IMG/VR virus record: IMGVR_UViG_3300033066_001054
From: a virus
Taxonomy: Duplodnaviria; Caudoviricetes
Reading direction: 5' to 3' (one strand)
DNA: 64,000 nt
A program made the translations under genes and the position numbers. The notes beneath the pieces are model-generated. The model did no database searches, had not been told where the DNA came from, and was given only the letters and a program-made list of their open reading frames with translations. Below are positions 10,427 through 54,530 of the stretch, piece after piece (the first letter of the stretch is position 1; each line of letters opens with the position of its first letter).

Positions 10427-10621
10427 ATGTTGACAATTGAGGCAGAAACATTGGTTGAGACTGGTGGTGTTCGGTATCGAACTATCACCGGAGGAGATTA
10501 TGAAGAGTCAGGATTGGTAGAAGTCTACCGAGAAGGTGACGAACAGAAAAACTCAATTGGTGCCTTTCAGGCACATTACATTGTCCACGGATATCATGTT
10601 GGAGAACCACCTCCAAACTAA
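10427..10621 (+). CDS. Hypothetical protein
   Basis: 64-aa ORF filling the operon gap. Confidence 0.5.
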   Translation: MLTIEAETLVETGGVRYRTITGGDYEESGLVEVYREGDEQKNSIGAFQAHYIVHGYHVGEPPPN

Positions 10622-10633
10622 AGAGAGAACAAT

Positions 10634-13081
10634 ATGGCAAGAGTTTCAGTAGAACACAGATTCACCGGAACAACAGGCCCAATTGATAGTCTTTCAGCAC
10701 CTACAGTTAGCGTTACAAACATCGGTGCCACCGGTGCCACGACATATGGATATCGAGTATCGGCTATCAACAGTGTTGGGGAAACATTGGCCTCGAGTAC
10801 GGTAACCACCGCGACGGGCAACTCGTCATTGACAGGGTCTAACTACAACAGAATTAGCTGGACTAGGGTAATTGGCGCGACAGGATACAAGGTTTACGGA
10901 CGAACTTCTGGTTCCGAGTTGCTTATGGCAACCGTTACAACAGCAAATCATTATGATGACACAGGCGCGGTAACGCCATCTGGGGCATTGCCAAGTACAA
11001 ACACCACAGGGTATTCGTCGTCTAGAACATCTATTGGCACCCTGATGCGACAACAAACTGGCACTGCCGATATTGATAAATGGGTTGGCCCATTCCCTGT
11101 TGGAATCAGTCGACCCATGGAAGGCAGCACTCAGATTCCAGGCATTATGCCGCATGTTATTAGGTGGAGTGGTGATATTGATTGGATTTTCTTGGCCGAT
11201 AACGCCACCGCAACGACAAGTCGTAGAATAGTATTCTACACATACACTCGGTCAACTAATACACTTGCATGGGAGGGCTTTGTCACAATTACCCATCCAA
11301 GCGGCACCAACGCCACTATACGTGGATTTAGAATGGTGTACGACACCTACACTACTGGAACAGTGAGCGTGACCGGAACATCGGTAACCGGAAGTGGTTC
11401 AGCTTGGTCAACAAACAGAATTGCTGTTGGTAGTCGGATTGGATTTGGTTCAACAGACCCAAACTATATTACAAGATGGTATGAAATCTCGGCTATTGGT
11501 TCTGACACGGGTATAACACTCGCCGTAGCGGTTGACGCAAGCGTTGCCGCAAACACACCATATGTCATAGAAGAACTTAGAGTAGTTATGGCTCAAACCA
11601 ATAACACCGCAACTTCTGGTGGTTTGTTCGTAGCAAAGGGATTAAGGCCAGAGTTGTTTATCACCTCTGGCACTGCAATTGCGGCTGCTACAACCACCGA
11701 CAATCAAAGAGCGTGTTATTGGCTTGCAGACGCCTCTACTGTTACAAATACAACCTCTCTGGGATTTGGTCTCCAGGCTAAGACCTCATATACAGCACAA
11801 AACGTATATGTTTTGGATGGAACATCTGCATGTAAGGTGTTTGTTTACAATATCAGGGCGTCATTAACTGGTTTAGCGTCTGGAAAATCAACTTCTGCTC
11901 TGTCTTTCTCAACTGGAACACAAACGCTTACTGGAACGGCCGGCCAGGTAAATAATGGAAGAATGGGCACGCTGTCTCATGGCCCGGGTTCAGGTATTGA
12001 GTGCCTATATTTCTGCACTGGTACTCGTGTGTATCGAGCCAAAATTACAGATATTGTCAGCGGTTCAACTGTATGGATTTCAGACTGTATGGTTGAGATA
12101 CCTACGGGTAGCGCAAGTACATATGCCGCAACCGGTGTGTTGAGCAGTGTGGAGGTAGCGGACTCATTAGACAGGTTAATTATTACTTCTACTGGTGCGT
12201 CCGGTGTGAGGCATTACGTTACAAAATACCAAACCAATGTAGAACAATTCGATTTGATTTGGGGAGTTGACATAAAACAAATTGACCAAACACTTGCCGA
12301 CGCCAATACACCGATTGTGCCAGGCAATATTCTCGCTACACCATTTACCGTTTGGTCTGAGGCAGGATTAACATACTTGGCCCGCGTAGGCACTGCAGCC
12401 ACAAACAATCATCTATACGTAGTTCCATTTGGGGCACATTGGGGATTTCAGTCTGCTGCGCCAACGCAGCGAGTTATCACTCCAGAAATCAGCACACCAA
12501 ATTGTTTTATGTTTCACAGGGCATGTATGTCATTTGTGAAAAAACTAGGGGCTGATAAGTTTTCCATATCACCAGAACCAATCAAAATGTTCTATCGAAC
12601 GAATGGAATTACGGACAATAGTGGTACATGGTATGAACTTGATGACTATGCAGATTTATCCGGTGTTGCGCCATCTTCCAGTATACAGTTTATGTTTGAA
12701 TTCAAAATCATAGGCAATTACTGTGTTCCAGGTAGGCTGCTGGGGTGTGAGGTTATGTACGAGATTGAAGACACATTGCCGTCACACCTTCAATGGAACC
12801 TTAACGATTCCAATAACTCTAATGGCACAGTTGGGTTTATTCAAAAATCCACTTATGGAAGTGTGCCCAATTTGGAAATCAACTACTATCGCTCAGATAA
12901 CGATGTTAACTTACTCACGCAAGACAGTACATCTAGCACATATGGAGCATTTGAGTATTGGACAGGTGCGGCATGGGCAGCAGGGCTAGGTTCTGATGCA
13001 GTTAACCAAAGAAGAAGATTTGTGCCATCATCTGGATTGCCAGCAAGCACGAACGTCTACGCTAAAATCAAGGTGATATAA
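10634..13081 (+). CDS. Tail fibre/receptor-binding-like protein, paralogue A
   Basis: 815 aa, T/S/G-rich; FN3-like TYGYRVSAINSVGET and fibre-like GTVSVTGTSVTGSG motifs. Confidence 0.65.
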   Translation: MARVSVEHRFTGTTGPIDSLSAPTVSVTNIGATGATTYGYRVSAINSVGETLASSTVTTATGNSSLTGSNYNRISWTRVIGATGYKVYGRTSGSELLMATVTTANHYDDTGAVTPSGALPSTNTTGYSSSRTSIGTLMRQQTGTADIDKWVGPFPVGISRPMEGSTQIPGIMPHVIRWSGDIDWIFLADNATATTSRRIVFYTYTRSTNTLAWEGFVTITHPSGTNATIRGFRMVYDTYTTGTVSVTGTSVTGSGSAWSTNRIAVGSRIGFGSTDPNYITRWYEISAIGSDTGITLAVAVDASVAANTPYVIEELRVVMAQTNNTATSGGLFVAKGLRPELFITSGTAIAAATTTDNQRACYWLADASTVTNTTSLGFGLQAKTSYTAQNVYVLDGTSACKVFVYNIRASLTGLASGKSTSALSFSTGTQTLTGTAGQVNNGRMGTLSHGPGSGIECLYFCTGTRVYRAKITDIVSGSTVWISDCMVEIPTGSASTYAATGVLSSVEVADSLDRLIITSTGASGVRHYVTKYQTNVEQFDLIWGVDIKQIDQTLADANTPIVPGNILATPFTVWSEAGLTYLARVGTAATNNHLYVVPFGAHWGFQSAAPTQRVITPEISTPNCFMFHRACMSFVKKLGADKFSISPEPIKMFYRTNGITDNSGTWYELDDYADLSGVAPSSSIQFMFEFKIIGNYCVPGRLLGCEVMYEIEDTLPSHLQWNLNDSNNSNGTVGFIQKSTYGSVPNLEINYYRSDNDVNLLTQDSTSSTYGAFEYWTGAAWAAGLGSDAVNQRRRFVPSSGLPASTNVYAKIKVI

Positions 13082-45813: not shown

Positions 45814-47070
45814 TTAGTCTATGACTGTCTTACCTGCAAATTCTAGTTCATACTTGCGTAATGCGCTCATAAGTTCATGGTCTGAGCTACTGTCCATCAC
45901 GTCGCTGACACTTCGGCCACTCTTAAGACCCTCAAATGCCTGCGGCCAAACGGCGTAGTATTCAGTGTCTTCAACTGGTTTGCCAGCAGCAACAGCGTTT
46001 TCATAACCCTCACTAATAAATCTTGCCAGGTAAAGAACTCGGTTCAAAACATTTCTAAGCGTCGGCGGGGCCGCCATAGCACCAACATATGAATCGGCGA
46101 CTGCGGAAATGCCAGTAACTGTTGCTGTCTCACCAGAGCCACCAGAGCCACCAGAGCCGCCAGAGCCGCCGCCACCTGTGCCAGTGTCCGTTGGGTCTGG
46201 GTCTGTGACAATGGTAAAGCCCTCAACATCTAGCATCCTGAGTTCCCTGAGTGCAGACATTTCATCATCCACAGAGTAGATACGCATGGCTTCTGAATAC
46301 CTTGGGTTTCTGATTTTAAGCCTGTTGAAGTTTTTGTCGACAACAACATATCCTTCATTTTTATGAGCGTCTGGCTGTTCTTCAATCAGTTCATAAACCT
46401 GGGCCAGCGAGCGTACTTTTTTATAGGGAGCAACCTCTCCGTGAAATTTCATGTTGAAGATGTCAATTTCTTTGAGTGTTTTTCTGTTGACGGCTGCGAC
46501 AAGATATAAATGTGATGTCGAATACAATACCACAACCCTGTTGTCTGGTGTGACTAGTTCAAAAACATAGGACACATCTGGATTGAGCTTGCTTGTGAAC
46601 TCTGCCCAGCTTGTGCCGTTGTTCATAAGTGCTTCTTCAACCAGTTGTCTCCATGTAACAGTTCTGCCAGAACCATTTGGACTTCGCACAATTGAGCTGC
46701 CATCGGCACTAAACCTAGTTGAACACCGCCATTGTCCTTTGTAATGATACATACACACTAATGCGCCGTCGATTTTGTGCATTGCTTTAGCACTAGACCA
46801 ATCAAACTGGTCTGCAATTGCCTTATATCCAGATTCACTGGGTTCAAAAAATGCGCCTATTGGTTTGCAAACAACGTCCCATGTATCGAGCTCCAAAATC
46901 AAACCACGGCACTCTCTGACAATCGGAGAAGATTTTGGACTCAGGGGTCTGTAGTTGAACACCACAACTCCCAATTCGTGATTGACGAAGTGTTGTATGT
47001 CGTATCGCTGATACAGATTTTGCAGCGTCTTGCCAGAACGCAAAAACTCAGATGTGTGTGTCGTGGTCAT
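45814..47070 (-). CDS. T4 Rnl1-family RNA ligase with (GGS)n linker and C-terminal extension
   Basis: RECRGLIL, motif I KIDG, STR, FEL..P.NRVV..Y, EGYVV and RLKI. Confidence 0.85.
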   Translation of the reverse strand: MTTTHTSEFLRSGKTLQNLYQRYDIQHFVNHELGVVVFNYRPLSPKSSPIVRECRGLILELDTWDVVCKPIGAFFEPSESGYKAIADQFDWSSAKAMHKIDGALVCMYHYKGQWRCSTRFSADGSSIVRSPNGSGRTVTWRQLVEEALMNNGTSWAEFTSKLNPDVSYVFELVTPDNRVVVLYSTSHLYLVAAVNRKTLKEIDIFNMKFHGEVAPYKKVRSLAQVYELIEEQPDAHKNEGYVVVDKNFNRLKIRNPRYSEAMRIYSVDDEMSALRELRMLDVEGFTIVTDPDPTDTGTGGGGSGGSGGSGGSGETATVTGISAVADSYVGAMAAPPTLRNVLNRVLYLARFISEGYENAVAAGKPVEDTEYYAVWPQAFEGLKSGRSVSDVMDSSSDHELMSALRKYELEFAGKTVID

Positions 47071-51630: not shown

Positions 51631-51764
51631 TATGCGGTCAAGATGTGAGAACGACGTTTAGCTGCTCTACCAACTGAGCTACAACCTCCTTGCGGAGATT
51701 GGTGGGACTCGAACCCACGACCAGCCCTTTAGCATAGGTAATCGTAACTCGTTCGTACCGCACA
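51631..51764 (-). ncRNA. yrlA: YrlA-type Y RNA (tRNA-mimic domain)
   Basis: Terminal stem TGTGCGGTACGAAC../..CTTGACCGCATA (Ro site) encloses a T arm GTGGG-TTCGAGT-CCCAC, a loop-closed acceptor-like stem CAATCTCC-GCAA-GGAGGTTG and a D arm TAGCTCAGTTGGTAGAGC; adjacent to rsr. Confidence 0.9.
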
Positions 51765-52021: not shown

Positions 52022-52546
52022 CTAACATCGCCCTCCAGCCCGCCAATTTTGGAGCAGTCCTCTTTCTGTCACTTCTTTCACTGCCTTTGATACAATTTTC
52101 CATGCTTCCCATGGCATATCGCGTCTGATGTAATTACAAGACCAACAACAAGGTTGAACATTATTTTGGGTGTGCCCAATTGTATTGTCAATTCTGTCCA
52201 AACTTAGTTTTTCTTGACTCGTGCAATATGCGCAACCATTCTGAATCAATGCCTGAACAAATTCTATTGTTAAATCATTATCAAAACCCTTTTTTCTATC
52301 ACTCCCTTTTGCGTCTCGCACAATGAATTTTGCACGTGTGGTCTTGTCTTGTCGAGCGGCTTGACGTTGTTCTTTTTCGATTGCCTTTCTTCGCTCCCAT
52401 ACCTCTGGATTGTTTTCATAATACCATCGGCGCATTTTGTATCTACAACTTTCGCATGCACCCCTGTGATATATTCTGCCTTCTTTGACTATTTGTTGAA
52501 AATTCTCAATGGATTTTTCTTCTTTGCACTTAGAACATGTCTTCAT
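52022..52546 (-). CDS. His-Me finger/HNH-type endonuclease
   Basis: CSKC..CESC, CAYC..LDRIDN..GH..NNV.PCC..CN. Confidence 0.8.
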   Translation of the reverse strand: MKTCSKCKEEKSIENFQQIVKEGRIYHRGACESCRYKMRRWYYENNPEVWERRKAIEKEQRQAARQDKTTRAKFIVRDAKGSDRKKGFDNDLTIEFVQALIQNGCAYCTSQEKLSLDRIDNTIGHTQNNVQPCCWSCNYIRRDMPWEAWKIVSKAVKEVTERGLLQNWRAGGRC

Positions 52547-52606: not shown

Positions 52607-52693
52607 TGGTGGGGGCCGTGGGATTCGAACCCACTCAGGCAAATGCCAACAGTTTTACAGACTGGCCCAGCTCTCCTACTCTGGCGCACCCCC
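52607..52693 (-). tRNA. tRNA-Tyr(GTA), atypical
   Basis: GGGGGTG..CAGT-CTGTAAA-ACTG, long variable arm, GTGGG-TTCGAAT-CCCAC, ACCA; G7:G66 mismatch. Confidence 0.8.
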
Positions 52694-52707
52694 AAAATCA
52701 ACAAATT

Positions 52708-52794
52708 TGGTGGGGGTGACAGGATTCGAACCTGCAATGCCTTGCGACGCCAGGGTTACAGCCTGGTAGGGCAACCAGTCGCCCCAACACCCCC
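52708..52794 (-). tRNA. tRNA-Tyr(GTA) with extended D stem
   Basis: GGGGGTG/CACCCCC-A-CCA; CCAGG-CTGTAAC-CCTGG; TTCGAAT T-loop. Confidence 0.85.
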
Positions 52795-52821
52795 GATTGT
52801 ATAGTTATAGTCACTTTCCAT
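52756..52821 (-). CDS. Tyr-codon mini-ORF (MESDYNY..., 21 aa) running into tRNA-Tyr
   Basis: AGAAAGACA ATG GAA AGT GAC TAT AAC TAT; the stop falls in the anticodon loop. Confidence 0.55.
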   Translation of the reverse strand: MESDYNYTIGGVGATGCPTRL

Positions 52822-52848
52822 TGTCTTTCTCTCTCTCTCTCTGAAATT

Positions 52849-53143
52849 TGGTATCAACGGCAGGACTCGAACCTACAGTACGCCCTCCAATGCTTGCATG
52901 CTATGGGCGCGTGTTACCTATCTATCGTCAAATTCACTACTGGGTTATGTACTCACCGAACCTTACTCACACTTCATACTCACCAACAATCCGGACCAAA
53001 CCTGTCTGGCGTTCAACCAGCTCAACGTTTCTAAAGCCTGCAAGCATGATATTTGGGCGTTCATGCTGGATTTCTTGATGTTTTCGTGTTCAACTTTCTC
53101 TAACTTTTCATTCCTCCTATTGTCAAAATTACACTACGTCGAT
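52849..53143 (-). ncRNA. tRNA-like element with ~210-nt D-loop insertion and enlarged anticodon arm
   Basis: ATCGACG/CGTTGAT-ACCA acceptor, GTGT/ACAC D stem split by the insert, CGCCC/GGGCG stem with a 19-nt loop, GTAGG-TTCGAGT-CCTGC. Confidence 0.6.
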
Positions 53144-53162
53144 ATAAACTGTCTGCGCCAGG

Positions 53163-53236
53163 GGTGACCAAAGGAACTCGAATCCTCAATCTTCTGGGCC
53201 ACAACCAGACGCTTTAACCGATTAAGCTATGGCCAC
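53163..53236 (-). tRNA. tRNA-His(GTG), no encoded G-1 or CCA
   Basis: GTGGCCA/TGGTCAC-C; TCTGG-TTGTGGC-CCAGA; TTCGAGT T-loop. Confidence 0.85.
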
Positions 53237-53371
53237 ACCTCGCGCGGTGTTCAAAACTTGGGGCGACCGAGGGGTATCGAGCCCCCTAGTGATTTGGTTC
53301 ACAGCCAAACCCCCTCGCCTTCTGGGTCCGACCGCCATGTTATTCAGTTGTGTATGATGATGGTCGTCCAT
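53222..53371 (-). CDS. His-codon mini-ORF (MDDHHH..., 49 aa) reading through tRNA-His
   Basis: AGAAAGACA ATG GAC GAC CAT CAT CAT; open across the first His tRNA and stops in the D arm of the second. Confidence 0.55.
   Translation of the reverse strand: MDDHHHTQLNNMAVGPRRRGGLAVNQITRGLDTPRSPQVLNTARGVAIA
53259..53336 (-). tRNA. tRNA-His(GTG), atypical T loop
   Basis: G-1:C73, GCGGTCG/CGGTCGC, TTTGG-CTGTGAA-CCAAA, T loop CTCGATA, CCA. Confidence 0.8.
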
Positions 53372-53396
53372 TGTCTTTCTTTCCTAACTACAAAAT

Positions 53397-53470
53397 TGGC
53401 TGGCACGGGTGGATTCGAACCACCATCCATGGAGTAACAGTCCATTATTCTACCGTTGAAATACATGCCA
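53397..53470 (-). tRNA. tRNA-Asn(GTT)
   Basis: TGGCATG/CGTGCCA-G-CCA; ATGGA-CTGTTAC-TCCAT; TTCGAAT. Confidence 0.9.
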
Positions 53471-53472
53471 GT

Positions 53473-54021
53473 TCAGTTTAGCCATTTCCTAATTGCGTTG
53501 TCTGATACCCCGTAGAGTCTTCCAACTGCTGAGACACTCATAGACCTCAATTGGTTAATCAAAATCTCTTTCGTGGGTCTTTCGCATTTTCTGCTTGCGA
53601 TTCTATAACACTCCGCACAGCAATATTTTTGTCCTTTGTTTTTTGGCTTGTATTGCTTGTTGCAAGTTTCGCAAGCCGATATCAACAATAACTTAATTTG
53701 CTTTTCTTGAGGTGACTTTTTCTTGTGCTTCTCCCATTTGTTGTCGTCTTTTGTTGCTTGCCATTTGTAATGTAGTTCTGTATGACATCTTACACACAAC
53801 AAGTCACATTTATCTGCTTCTGCTTTAAGTCTTTCATAAGACCATGATTTTCCACTAATGGTCAAGTCTTTTTGATTCGGGTCTCGATGATGAAATGCAT
53901 ATGCTGGCGGACAATCTTCTTCGTAACCACATTGGATACATTTTCCACCTTTGTACTCAATCAGCAATCTTTTTACCCTTCTTCTCCATGACACAACCTT
54001 GTGTGTTTTACTTGCACTCAT
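53473..54021 (-). CDS. HNH homing endonuclease with C-terminal HTH, between the two tRNA-Asn genes
   Basis: KGGKCIQCGY..FHHRDP..K..KCDLLCVRCH..LH; GRLYGVSDNAIRKW. Confidence 0.85.
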   Translation of the reverse strand: MSASKTHKVVSWRRRVKRLLIEYKGGKCIQCGYEEDCPPAYAFHHRDPNQKDLTISGKSWSYERLKAEADKCDLLCVRCHTELHYKWQATKDDNKWEKHKKKSPQEKQIKLLLISACETCNKQYKPKNKGQKYCCAECYRIASRKCERPTKEILINQLRSMSVSAVGRLYGVSDNAIRKWLN

Positions 54022-54074
54022 AAGTGTTTGTTAACCAAAAAAGTTAACCATACCTCTGTATGAGTTCGAAATTT

Positions 54075-54150
54075 TGGAGGCCCGCCTGGGTTCTGACCCC
54101 AGCCCTTTCCGTTTAACAGACGTCTGCAACTACCAGCTTGCTCACGAGCC
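54075..54150 (-). tRNA. tRNA-Asn(GTT), strongly atypical
   Basis: GGCTCGT/GCGGGCC-T-CCA; GCAA/TTGC D stem; CGT-CTGTTAA-ACG; T loop GTCAGAA. Confidence 0.7.
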
Positions 54151-54197: not shown

Positions 54198-54221
54198 CTA
54201 ATTATTGTCGTTGTCCTCCAT
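54198..54221 (-). CDS. Asn-codon mini-ORF MEDNDNN
   Basis: GAGGAAAAGGACA ATG GAG GAC AAC GAC AAT AAT TAG, 47 nt before tRNA-Asn. Confidence 0.55.
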   Translation of the reverse strand: MEDNDNN

Positions 54222-54243
54222 TGTCCTTTTCCTCGTCAAATCT

Positions 54244-54280
54244 AAAAAAAGAAAGCCCGACCTTGTGAGCCGGGCTTTCT
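54244..54280 (-). terminator. Attenuator terminator of the tRNA operon
   Basis: AGAAAGCCCGGC-TCACAAG-GTCGGGCTTTCT followed by a T run. Confidence 0.9.
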
Positions 54281-54302
54281 TGGGGATTGGTCAATCTTAC
54301 GA

Positions 54303-54416
54303 TTAAGCCTGGTACCCCCAGTTAGCCCGAACCATATTGGGATAATTATGCACGGCGGTATTGGCCTGATAGGCCAACCGTGTGCTTCCATTATGGTTAT
54401 TCAAGCTAAATCGCAT
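54303..54416 (-). CDS. Asn/His/Tyr-rich leader peptide (37 aa)
   Basis: MRFSLNNHNGSTRLAYQANTAVHNYPNMVRANWGYQA; AAGGA RBS 6 nt upstream; lies between promoter and terminator. Confidence 0.8.
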   Translation of the reverse strand: MRFSLNNHNGSTRLAYQANTAVHNYPNMVRANWGYQA

Positions 54417-54455
54417 GTTCATTCCTTTCGCGATGTTTTCATCGCTCACCTTCAT

Positions 54456-54484
54456 ATTATACAACAGACTTCGTTTTTTGTCAA
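54456..54484 (-). promoter_or_regulatory. Consensus sigma70 promoter
   Basis: TTGACA (54479-84), 17 nt, TATAAT (54456-61). Confidence 0.9.
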
Positions 54485-54530
54485 GAGGTTCCGAGAAAAA
54501 TCCGAAAAAAGTCGTGTTTGAACCCGAAAA

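Follow-up and report, generated by a model that had tools for sequence, protein, structure and literature searches.

The stretch of DNA analysed here, called the window throughout, comprises 64,000 nucleotides (nt) of IMG/VR virus record IMGVR_UViG_3300033066_001054 (Duplodnaviria; Caudoviricetes). At positions 54,244 to 54,484 it carries an element that is best read as a ribosome-mediated (leader-peptide) transcription attenuator heading a phage operon that encodes tRNAs for Asn, His and Tyr as well as tRNA-like RNAs. Judging from the sequence and the modelled folds, we put the probability of this reading at about 0.6. All features of the locus lie on the minus strand, positions are those of the 64-kb window, and coordinates are collected in Table 1. 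The marks by which an attenuator can be recognized at the sequence level are present: a promoter-proximal open reading frame (ORF), codons cognate to the downstream tRNAs, a terminator, a predicted antiterminator between regions 2 and 3 (2:3), and an alternative stem between regions 1 and 2 (1:2) that overlaps the ORF. The phage would then probably produce tRNAs for Asn, His and Tyr only in response to slow decoding of the matching codons by ribosomes. From this arrangement we infer that the ORF is translated, that the folds compete kinetically and that the tRNAs rely on read-through; the physiological trigger is an inference too.

The promoter had been called perfect in the first-pass annotation, a model's reading of the letters that preceded this analysis. 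It is: the exact string TTGACA-N17-TATAAT occurs once in the window, where 0.08 occurrences are expected by chance. Both hexamers are unchanged across eight close relatives, and three distant relatives (L024, L025 and L026) have a perfect or near-perfect sigma-70 promoter at the equivalent place. The T-rich stretch upstream of the -35 box may act as an UP element. Between the leader ORF and the tRNA genes lies an intrinsic terminator (54281..54243), as strong as first described, with a GC-rich stem of 13-14 base pairs (bp) followed by U7; it is present in each lineage whose contig extends to it. The leader RNA of about 200 nt is predicted to fold at -82.3 kcal/mol (z = -6.6 against shuffles). 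Neither the window nor the minimal relative L008 showed another sigma-70-type promoter in the interval from terminator to tRNAs, and the CGGYCCCGGA phage motif does not occur near the leader locus.

A promoter, an ORF and a strong terminator that always forms at equilibrium are also the ordinary layout of a monocistronic gene. The element might accordingly be a stand-alone, highly expressed gene for a structured small RNA and/or a small protein, with the tRNAs transcribed independently through unrecognised phage promoters or a constant leak. Its unusual degree of structure and its conservation at all codon positions are what a functional RNA would show, and there is precedent in the attenuator-derived rnTrpL RNA and peTrpL peptide, which can act in trans (PMC6614838, PMC7298713). 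The lack of another sigma-70 promoter ahead of the tRNAs speaks against such a gene, as do the codon content, the peptide divergence and the pairing of region 2 described below, and we regard it as unlikely, if still the strongest of the competing explanations.

Relatives were retrieved with the 158- and 541-amino-acid (aa) neighbour proteins and are metagenomic giant-phage contigs of up to 479 kb. The element is present in seven further metagenomic lineages, so the proposed check of its conservation in related phages came out positive. The close lineages are L001/L014, L008, L002, L011, L016 and L018; the distant ones, by identity of the 541-aa flanking protein, are L024 (65%), L025 (54%) and L026 (48%). 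The short contigs L015, L016 and L017 break off ahead of the leader or within it. Among the close lineages the leader retains 88-98% nucleotide identity, compared with 70-75% in adjacent genes, and all codon positions are conserved, which points to constraint on the RNA sequence itself. The layout of promoter, 5' hairpin, Shine-Dalgarno, ORF (40, 36 and 38 codons), terminator and Asn-Asn mini-ORF is repeated in L024, L025 and L026. An Asn/His/Tyr tRNA set follows the leader in all six lineages with contigs long enough; L025 and L026 have solely Asn, His and Tyr tRNAs before Ro60, and the L024 contig stops short of the tRNAs.

Other collections added little. A metagenome scan with the 158-aa family yielded one extra close relative only, and a degenerate motif search led to one 479-kb contig of the L008 lineage. 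The INPHARED phage collection holds no DNA or protein relative of the locus beyond generic tRNA and Ro60 matches, IMG/VR gave no match with the 158-aa neighbour or the exact terminator, and GTDB genomes gave no match. Two Ro60-anchored IMG/VR loci (L022, L023) contain other tRNA arrays and no homologous leader. The L025 sequence (GCA_018268375.1, JAFDWS010000002.1, 86526-100175) is part of a contig of 1.36 Mb that bears the label of an Armatimonadetes metagenome-assembled genome; the label could be a host clue, or it could reflect an integrated element of very large size or faulty binning.

The leader peptide, MRFSLNNHNGSTRLAYQANTAVHNYPNMVRANWGYQA, contains 7 Asn, 2 His and 3 Tyr residues but no Asp; the earlier counts for this 37-aa ORF at 54416..54303 were exact. 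Asn, His and Tyr together account for 12 of the 37 codons, compared with 11% in the window's large ORFs (binomial P = 4e-4), and the leader ranks first for this share among the 336 small ATG-ORFs of the window. When four lineages are pooled the figure is 36 of 151 codons (P = 7e-6), the most enriched residues being His (3.1-fold) and Asn (2.9-fold). The most depleted residue is Asp, with none found and 8.5 expected (P = 1.5e-4); Asp is the fourth amino acid served by a GUN anticodon, and tRNA-Asp is not in the cluster. The close variant L016 has an Ala37Asp change in its leader ORF. The tRNA genes themselves had been named as Asn, His and Tyr, and they were found as Asn, His, Tyr and Tyr together with tRNA-like partners. 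Ahead of each tRNA pair lies a conserved mini-ORF that has a purine-rich ribosome-binding site and that pair's cognate codons, which makes a chance codon match in the leader unlikely. A stand-alone gene leaves the codon-tRNA match, the avoidance of Asp and the cognate mini-ORFs unexplained.

Only five residues are invariant across eight sequences: Met1, Asn7, His23, Tyr25 and Ala31. Ala31 lies in region 2, where it is part of the structural GGGC(U/C) element, and Asn7, His23 and Tyr25 are one each of the amino acids matched by the downstream tRNAs. A His-(Asn/Ser)-Tyr-(Pro/Leu)-(Asn/Tyr) motif is retained despite nucleotide differences, and the remainder of the peptide has diverged to 34-43% identity between lineages. 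Such low conservation is more in keeping with a leader peptide than with a small protein that has a function of its own, and both the divergence and the identity of the invariant residues speak against a stand-alone gene.

The signals for translation have been kept. Between the retained Shine-Dalgarno and AUG the spacer is variable, and relatives have lost an in-frame ATG that lies upstream; L024, L025 and L026 have AAGGA or AGGAG as their Shine-Dalgarno. The ORF is 36-40 codons long in all lineages and 37 throughout the close set, in which AUG and TAA are kept; no insertion or deletion falls inside it there, compared with seven events in its flanks. Three other frames were considered and rejected. 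A 50-aa in-frame ORF from ATG 54455 begins upstream of the likely transcription start, a 39-aa in-frame ORF from ATG 54422 abuts the Shine-Dalgarno and its ATG is not conserved, and an overlapping 49-aa frame (54391..54242) has no ribosome-binding site and is broken by indels in relatives.

Folding of the full-length RNA predicts that codons 3-10 pair with codons 26-32 (1:2) around a central hairpin, followed by hairpin P3 and the terminator (3:4). If the terminator 3' arm is omitted, the minimum free energy (MFE) fold switches and UCGGGCU pairs with AGCCCGG, stacked on P3. The complementarity of codons 29-34 (UCGGGCU-AAC-UGGGG) to CCCCA-AGAA-AGCCCGG, which overlaps the terminator 5' arm, was the core of the first-pass proposal; it is present in the window and is what the MFE fold of the truncated RNA adopts. 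The antiterminator domain (2:3 plus P3) has a predicted energy of -27.9 kcal/mol, compared with -22.1 kcal/mol for the terminator hairpin. In RNA lacking the 3' arm the 2:3 form is favoured over the 1:2 form by 5-10 kcal/mol (in the window, -70.9 versus -60.7 kcal/mol). Both alternative folds, whose comparison had been suggested as a test, are predicted in all nine sequences folded, six full-length close ones and three distant ones.

The folds are supported by covariation. In the terminated fold 88% of cells are paired with 25 compensatory pairs, none of 500 shuffles matches this and slid controls reach 33-44%, figures that are somewhat inflated, because the alignment also served to derive the structure. 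Pairing in the terminator helix reaches 94%, with six compensatory pairs across eight sequences, and for region 1, the 5' strand of stem P1, the cross-lineage covariation includes helices 2-4 at 87-90% paired. For the antiterminator helix the value is 80%, compared with 16-58% in slid controls, with four compensatory pairs that include a U-A to C-G change beside the GGGC core. The 5' hairpin shows a compensatory A-U to G-C change in L002/L018 and is kept with a different sequence in L024-L026; P3 is kept with a shifted register in L011 and is replaced by a different domain at the same place in the distant lineages. A further pairing in the truncated-RNA folds, between the 5' end GUGAGC (54449..54444) and GCUCAC of the terminator top and loop (54269..54264), was given no weight; changes in L008 weaken it and it is kept only through G-U wobbles.

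The match of region 2 to the terminator arm lengthens to 10-11 bp in L025 and L026, using bases peculiar to the terminator of the lineage concerned. Tested against shuffles, the own-lineage duplex gives P = 0.005 in L025 (11 bp, -22.7 kcal/mol), P = 0.024 in L026 and P = 0.10 in L024. A plain terminator, such as a stand-alone gene would have, needs no region 2 that tracks the terminator 5' arm lineage by lineage.

Ribosome positions were modelled codon by codon with a 28-nt mask for the footprint. The 2:3 antiterminator is predicted as long as the A site lies within codons 4-25; at codon 27 and beyond it is lost or left without P3. Two conserved stall zones can be recognized, Asn6-Asn9 within region 1 and His23-Tyr25 immediately before region 2, and the conserved cognate codons sit exactly in the mask-permissive zone. 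Earlier attention had gone to the H-N-Y-P-N run at codons 23-27, just upstream of codons 29-34. Its His23-Tyr25 part is indeed conserved, and the single run is now better described as one of two zones. The stop codon falls 11-26 nt past region 2, inside the 2:3-closed domain, in all four lineages compared, so that a ribosome finishing the ORF may disrupt that domain. In the model geometry a ribosome at the stop codon would melt P3 and leave region 2 itself uncovered.

Taken together, the element might work as follows. Host RNA polymerase would initiate at the very strong sigma-70 promoter, and the nascent leader would expose the Shine-Dalgarno and the AUG. If the leader is not translated, stem 1:2 would sequester region 2, and the 13-bp terminator 3:4 would end transcription at 54243-54249. 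If it is translated freely, the ribosome would move over region 2 to the stop codon in P3, melt P3 and block the antiterminator, and termination would again result. A ribosome stalled at Asn6-Asn9 or His23-Tyr25, when the cognate charged tRNAs are scarce or damaged, would leave region 2 free and P3 intact. The emerging region 3 could then zip onto region 2 stacked on P3, with P3 serving as an added nucleation clamp for the antiterminator; the terminator would not form and polymerase would enter the tRNA genes. The extra Asn, His and Tyr tRNA would relieve the stall and provide negative feedback.

Several observations weigh against an attenuator. The geometry proposed in the first-pass annotation is borne out in its anatomy, alternative folds, conservation and covariation; at equilibrium, however, the terminator has a probability of about 1 at every modelled ribosome position, and the switch can therefore work only kinetically, as in known attenuators. 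The 2:3 fold is favoured before the 3' arm exists even without a ribosome, which makes the default (ribosome-free) state uncertain. Taken alone, the window's duplex between region 2 and the terminator arm is no better than shuffles (P = 0.30), and in the full folding context the gain is modest (P = 0.03). L011 has two broken pairs in stem 1:2 and is also the only member of the close set with a weak Shine-Dalgarno (AAAGA). Of the proposed sensing of Asn, His and Tyr, the first two are backed by codon enrichment and the third by the invariant Tyr25, but Tyr enrichment over four lineages is 1.25-fold and not significant. In L025 and L026 cognate codons are merely 7 of 36 and 6 of 38. Substitutions in the ORF give only marginal support for coding, with 12 of 28 events synonymous (P = 0.064) and codon positions 1, 2 and 3 varying 5, 9 and 12 times. 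Finally, phage promoters of a kind that is not recognisable here may exist, in which case the tRNAs might be independent of the terminator.

Some of these points would also fit mere coincidence, that is, an early promoter, a chance small ORF and a short-transcript terminator with no regulatory tie to the tRNAs. Folding programs usually find a partner for a GC-rich terminator arm, and the window-only duplex test is in line with such a view. So is codon usage: the first-pass annotation had stressed U-ending codons, and 9 of the 12 Asn, His and Tyr codons do end in T, but against a background of 51% this bias is not significant (P = 0.086). Chance would nevertheless have to account for an arrangement kept, with its compensatory pairs, at about 50% flanking protein identity and for the codon enrichment over four lineages. 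It would also have to account for the four duplex shuffle P values, which combine to about 0.0015 (Fisher's method, hand calculation). We consider it very improbable.

The marginal coding evidence, together with the conservation of both alternative folds and the presence of tRNA-handling genes downstream, could instead indicate an RNA switch that does without the ribosome. Terminator and antiterminator would then be set by a ligand, whether an uncharged or damaged tRNA bound in T-box fashion, a protein, or the Ro60/Y-RNA machinery, and the ORF would be incidental. As a lead only, CUGGGGGUACCAGG loosely resembles what we take to be the T-box motif GGGUGGNACC. Rfam, however, contains no T-box or riboswitch match for the window or its relatives: T-box (RF00230) has no match up to E = 1 in the window region or up to E = 0.1 in four relatives, and T-box and preQ1 riboswitch identities were both discarded. 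The apical loop with the Tyr codon is not conserved (TAT to TCT in L018), and neither is the P3 region with the T-box-like string in L024-L026. Every lineage, by contrast, keeps the Shine-Dalgarno, the AUG, the ORF length and the stop position in the antiterminator domain. We regard a ribosome-independent switch as improbable, less plausible than a stand-alone gene but more so than coincidence. T-boxes share with the element a terminator/antiterminator switch tied to tRNA status, but they bind uncharged tRNA directly, without translation, and control aminoacyl-tRNA synthetase or amino-acid genes, mostly in Firmicutes.

As a leader-peptide attenuator, the element most resembles the thr (Thr/Ile) and ilvGMEDA (Leu/Val/Ile) leaders. 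These also have a promoter-proximal short ORF with several kinds of regulatory codon, regions that form 1:2, 2:3 and 3:4, and a terminator before the controlled genes, with the ribosome's position picking the fold. They control biosynthetic enzymes, whereas the phage element would control tRNAs and hence both sense and correct the supply of tRNAs, not that of amino acids. The phage-borne leader is also longer, at 36-40 codons, with cognate codons spread over two zones and a stop codon that lies inside the extra hairpin P3, which would nucleate the antiterminator. In trpL and hisL, likewise, a stall in region 1 frees region 2 and an untranslated leader leads to termination, but there tandem codons report on a single amino acid. 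Region 2 is directly covered by a ribosome that has reached the trpL stop codon; in the phage leader such a ribosome would cover P3, which adjoins region 2. The element is unrelated in sequence to the Rfam leader families, which gave only sub-threshold matches, driven largely by the terminator; these were not accepted as identities. Thr_leader (RF00506) scores 25.6 bits against a threshold of 55 (E = 0.18) over 54246-54312, essentially the terminator and P3, and the rnk_pseudo leader (RF01772) scores 24.4 bits against 55 (E = 0.99) over 54244-54334.

The purpose of tRNA genes in phages is a matter of decades-long debate, and to our knowledge the regulation of these genes is essentially undescribed. 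The first-pass annotation knew of no attenuator for phage tRNA genes, and a full-text literature search found no published description of attenuation or leader-peptide control of tRNA genes. Classical attenuators govern genes for amino-acid biosynthesis or transport; here they comprise tRNAs and tRNA-like RNAs along with a Y-RNA-like gene and Ro60. Since tRNAs fall outside the classical scope, the element would be a variant of a known attenuation mechanism. If the reading is true, a textbook amino-acid sensor becomes a sensor of tRNA function with built-in feedback, and the phage monitors the decoding capacity of its host and responds to it.

What stress the attenuator might sense is suggested by its own composition: three of the four queuosine-family tRNAs, together with the avoidance of Asp in the sensor, amount to a concrete hypothesis. 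Purely as conjecture, the trigger could be host GUN tRNAs that are cleaved, uncharged or lacking queuosine. Colicin E5 targets the Tyr, His, Asn and Asp tRNAs that have QUN anticodons (PMC1669751, PMC1635277), and the phage cluster holds three of these four species and nothing else; a link to a like nuclease in the phage's host is speculative. Phage tRNAs are known to counter tRNA-cutting defences, with variants in the anticodon loop (PMC10264068), and the tRNA-Tyr of T5, driven by a strong promoter, counters retron-Eco7 PtuAB (PMC11555353). The overlap with the colicin E5 targets and this role of phage tRNAs keep the proposed trigger reasonable. In those cases, too, phage copies replace host tRNAs destroyed by defence nucleases, but they are described as highly or constitutively expressed and no demand-sensing leader is reported (PMC11555353, PMC10264068). 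More tentatively, the operon attenuator (Asn, His and Tyr, with Asp avoided) and the mini-ORFs before each tRNA-like/tRNA pair might form two layers of one sensor of decoding capacity. Host GUN tRNAs would then be gauged separately for each codon family, for instance in the wake of an anticodon nuclease of colicin-E5-like or retron type, and replacement tRNAs, possible decoy tRNAs and the Ro60/Y-RNA module would be supplied on demand. This extension is doubtful on present evidence.

Table 1. Features of the leader, its mini-ORFs and the genes it would control (window positions unless a relative is named; stop marks a termination codon).
Feature	Position	Strand	Basis or remark
T-rich, UP-element-like stretch, 5' of -35 box	54490..54520	-	Sequence reading; TTTTTT 54510..54505, TTTTT 54500..54496; kept in all relatives
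Sigma-70 promoter, TTGACA-17 nt-TATAAT	54456..54484	-	12/12 match
Putative transcription start, G	54449	-	From promoter spacing, 7 nt past -10 box
5' hairpin, GCGAUG-AAAA-CAUCGC	54430..54445	-	Predicted fold
Shine-Dalgarno, AAGGA	54423..54427	-	6 nt 5' of AUG 54416; site and AUG unpaired in predicted fold
Leader ORF, 37 codons	54303..54416	-	ATG 54416; TAA 54305-54303 included
Region 1, 5' strand of long stem P1, codons 3-10 (Asn6 Asn7 His8 Asn9 included)	54388..54409	-	Fold and cross-lineage covariation
Central hairpin P2, codons 11-23	54350..54385	-	Several compensatory pairs: G-C to A-U in L008, C-G to U-A in L011
Region 2, 3' strand of P1, codons 26-32	54322..54340	-	Core UCGGGCU 54330..54324, alternative partner of terminator 5' arm
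Hairpin P3 (UGGGGGU ... AUCCCCA), ORF stop codon inside	54281..54320	-	Stacks under 2:3 helix, forming the predicted antiterminator domain
Region 3, terminator 5' arm AGAAAGCCCGGCU	54268..54280	-	AGCCCGG 54276..54270, partner of region 2
Region 4, terminator 3' arm GGUCGGGCUUUCU and U7 tract	54243..54262	-	Predicted fold
Mini-ORF MEDNDNN-stop with GAGGA Shine-Dalgarno	54198..54221	-	21 nt past terminator; context, outside the switch
Would-be controlled genes: tRNA-like Asn, inserted HNH gene, tRNA-Asn, tRNA-like His, tRNA-His, two tRNA-Tyr	52607..54150	-	Gene order as given
Asn-pair mini-ORFs: MEDNDNN-stop, MEESDNN-stop, MEDGNNILR-stop, MEEGNNI-stop, MEDDNNNN-stop			
His-pair mini-ORFs: MDDHHH.., MEDHHH..			
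Tyr-pair mini-ORFs: MESDYNY.., MESDYTY..			
Mini-ORFs, window	54221..54198, 53371.., 52821..	-	
Mini-ORFs, L008	6786, 7034, 7291		
Mini-ORFs, distant lineages	L024 7458; L025 8801, 9153; L026 8198, 8449		

All mini-ORFs carry Asp or Glu codons near their start, and the Asn-Asn mini-ORF, which the distant lineages share, is found in L011 as well. For the first of the paired Asn tRNAs there are two unrelated alleles, both with a GUU anticodon and an encoded CCA. Allele 1, found in the window (54150..54072), L008 and L002, is 76 nt long, has the odd T-loop GUCAGAA and is not called by ARAGORN; allele 2, found in L001 (6857-6943) and L011 (6844-6930), is 87 nt long with a long variable arm. An HNH endonuclease gene (54021..53473) sits exactly between the two Asn tRNA genes and is absent in L008, L001 and L011.

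Beyond the tRNA-Tyr pair the same strand carries an endonuclease-VII-like gene, a YrlA-like RNA and the Ro60 gene. The endonuclease-VII/DUF5679-like gene (52546..52022) is absent in L008; it and the HNH gene have the look of free-standing homing endonucleases invading the array of tRNAs. The YrlA-like RNA (51755..51645), directly upstream of Ro60, scores 39.5-42 bits in the window (41 bits) and four relatives against an Rfam threshold of 69, and is probably a divergent Y RNA. Elsewhere in the window, the ORF at 45814..47070 and its neighbours had no Pfam match, and an Rnl1-type RNA ligase there is not confirmed. In L003, a variant of the L002 lineage, a gene of the IS605 OrfB/TnpB type (10583-11752) is inserted right after Ro60.

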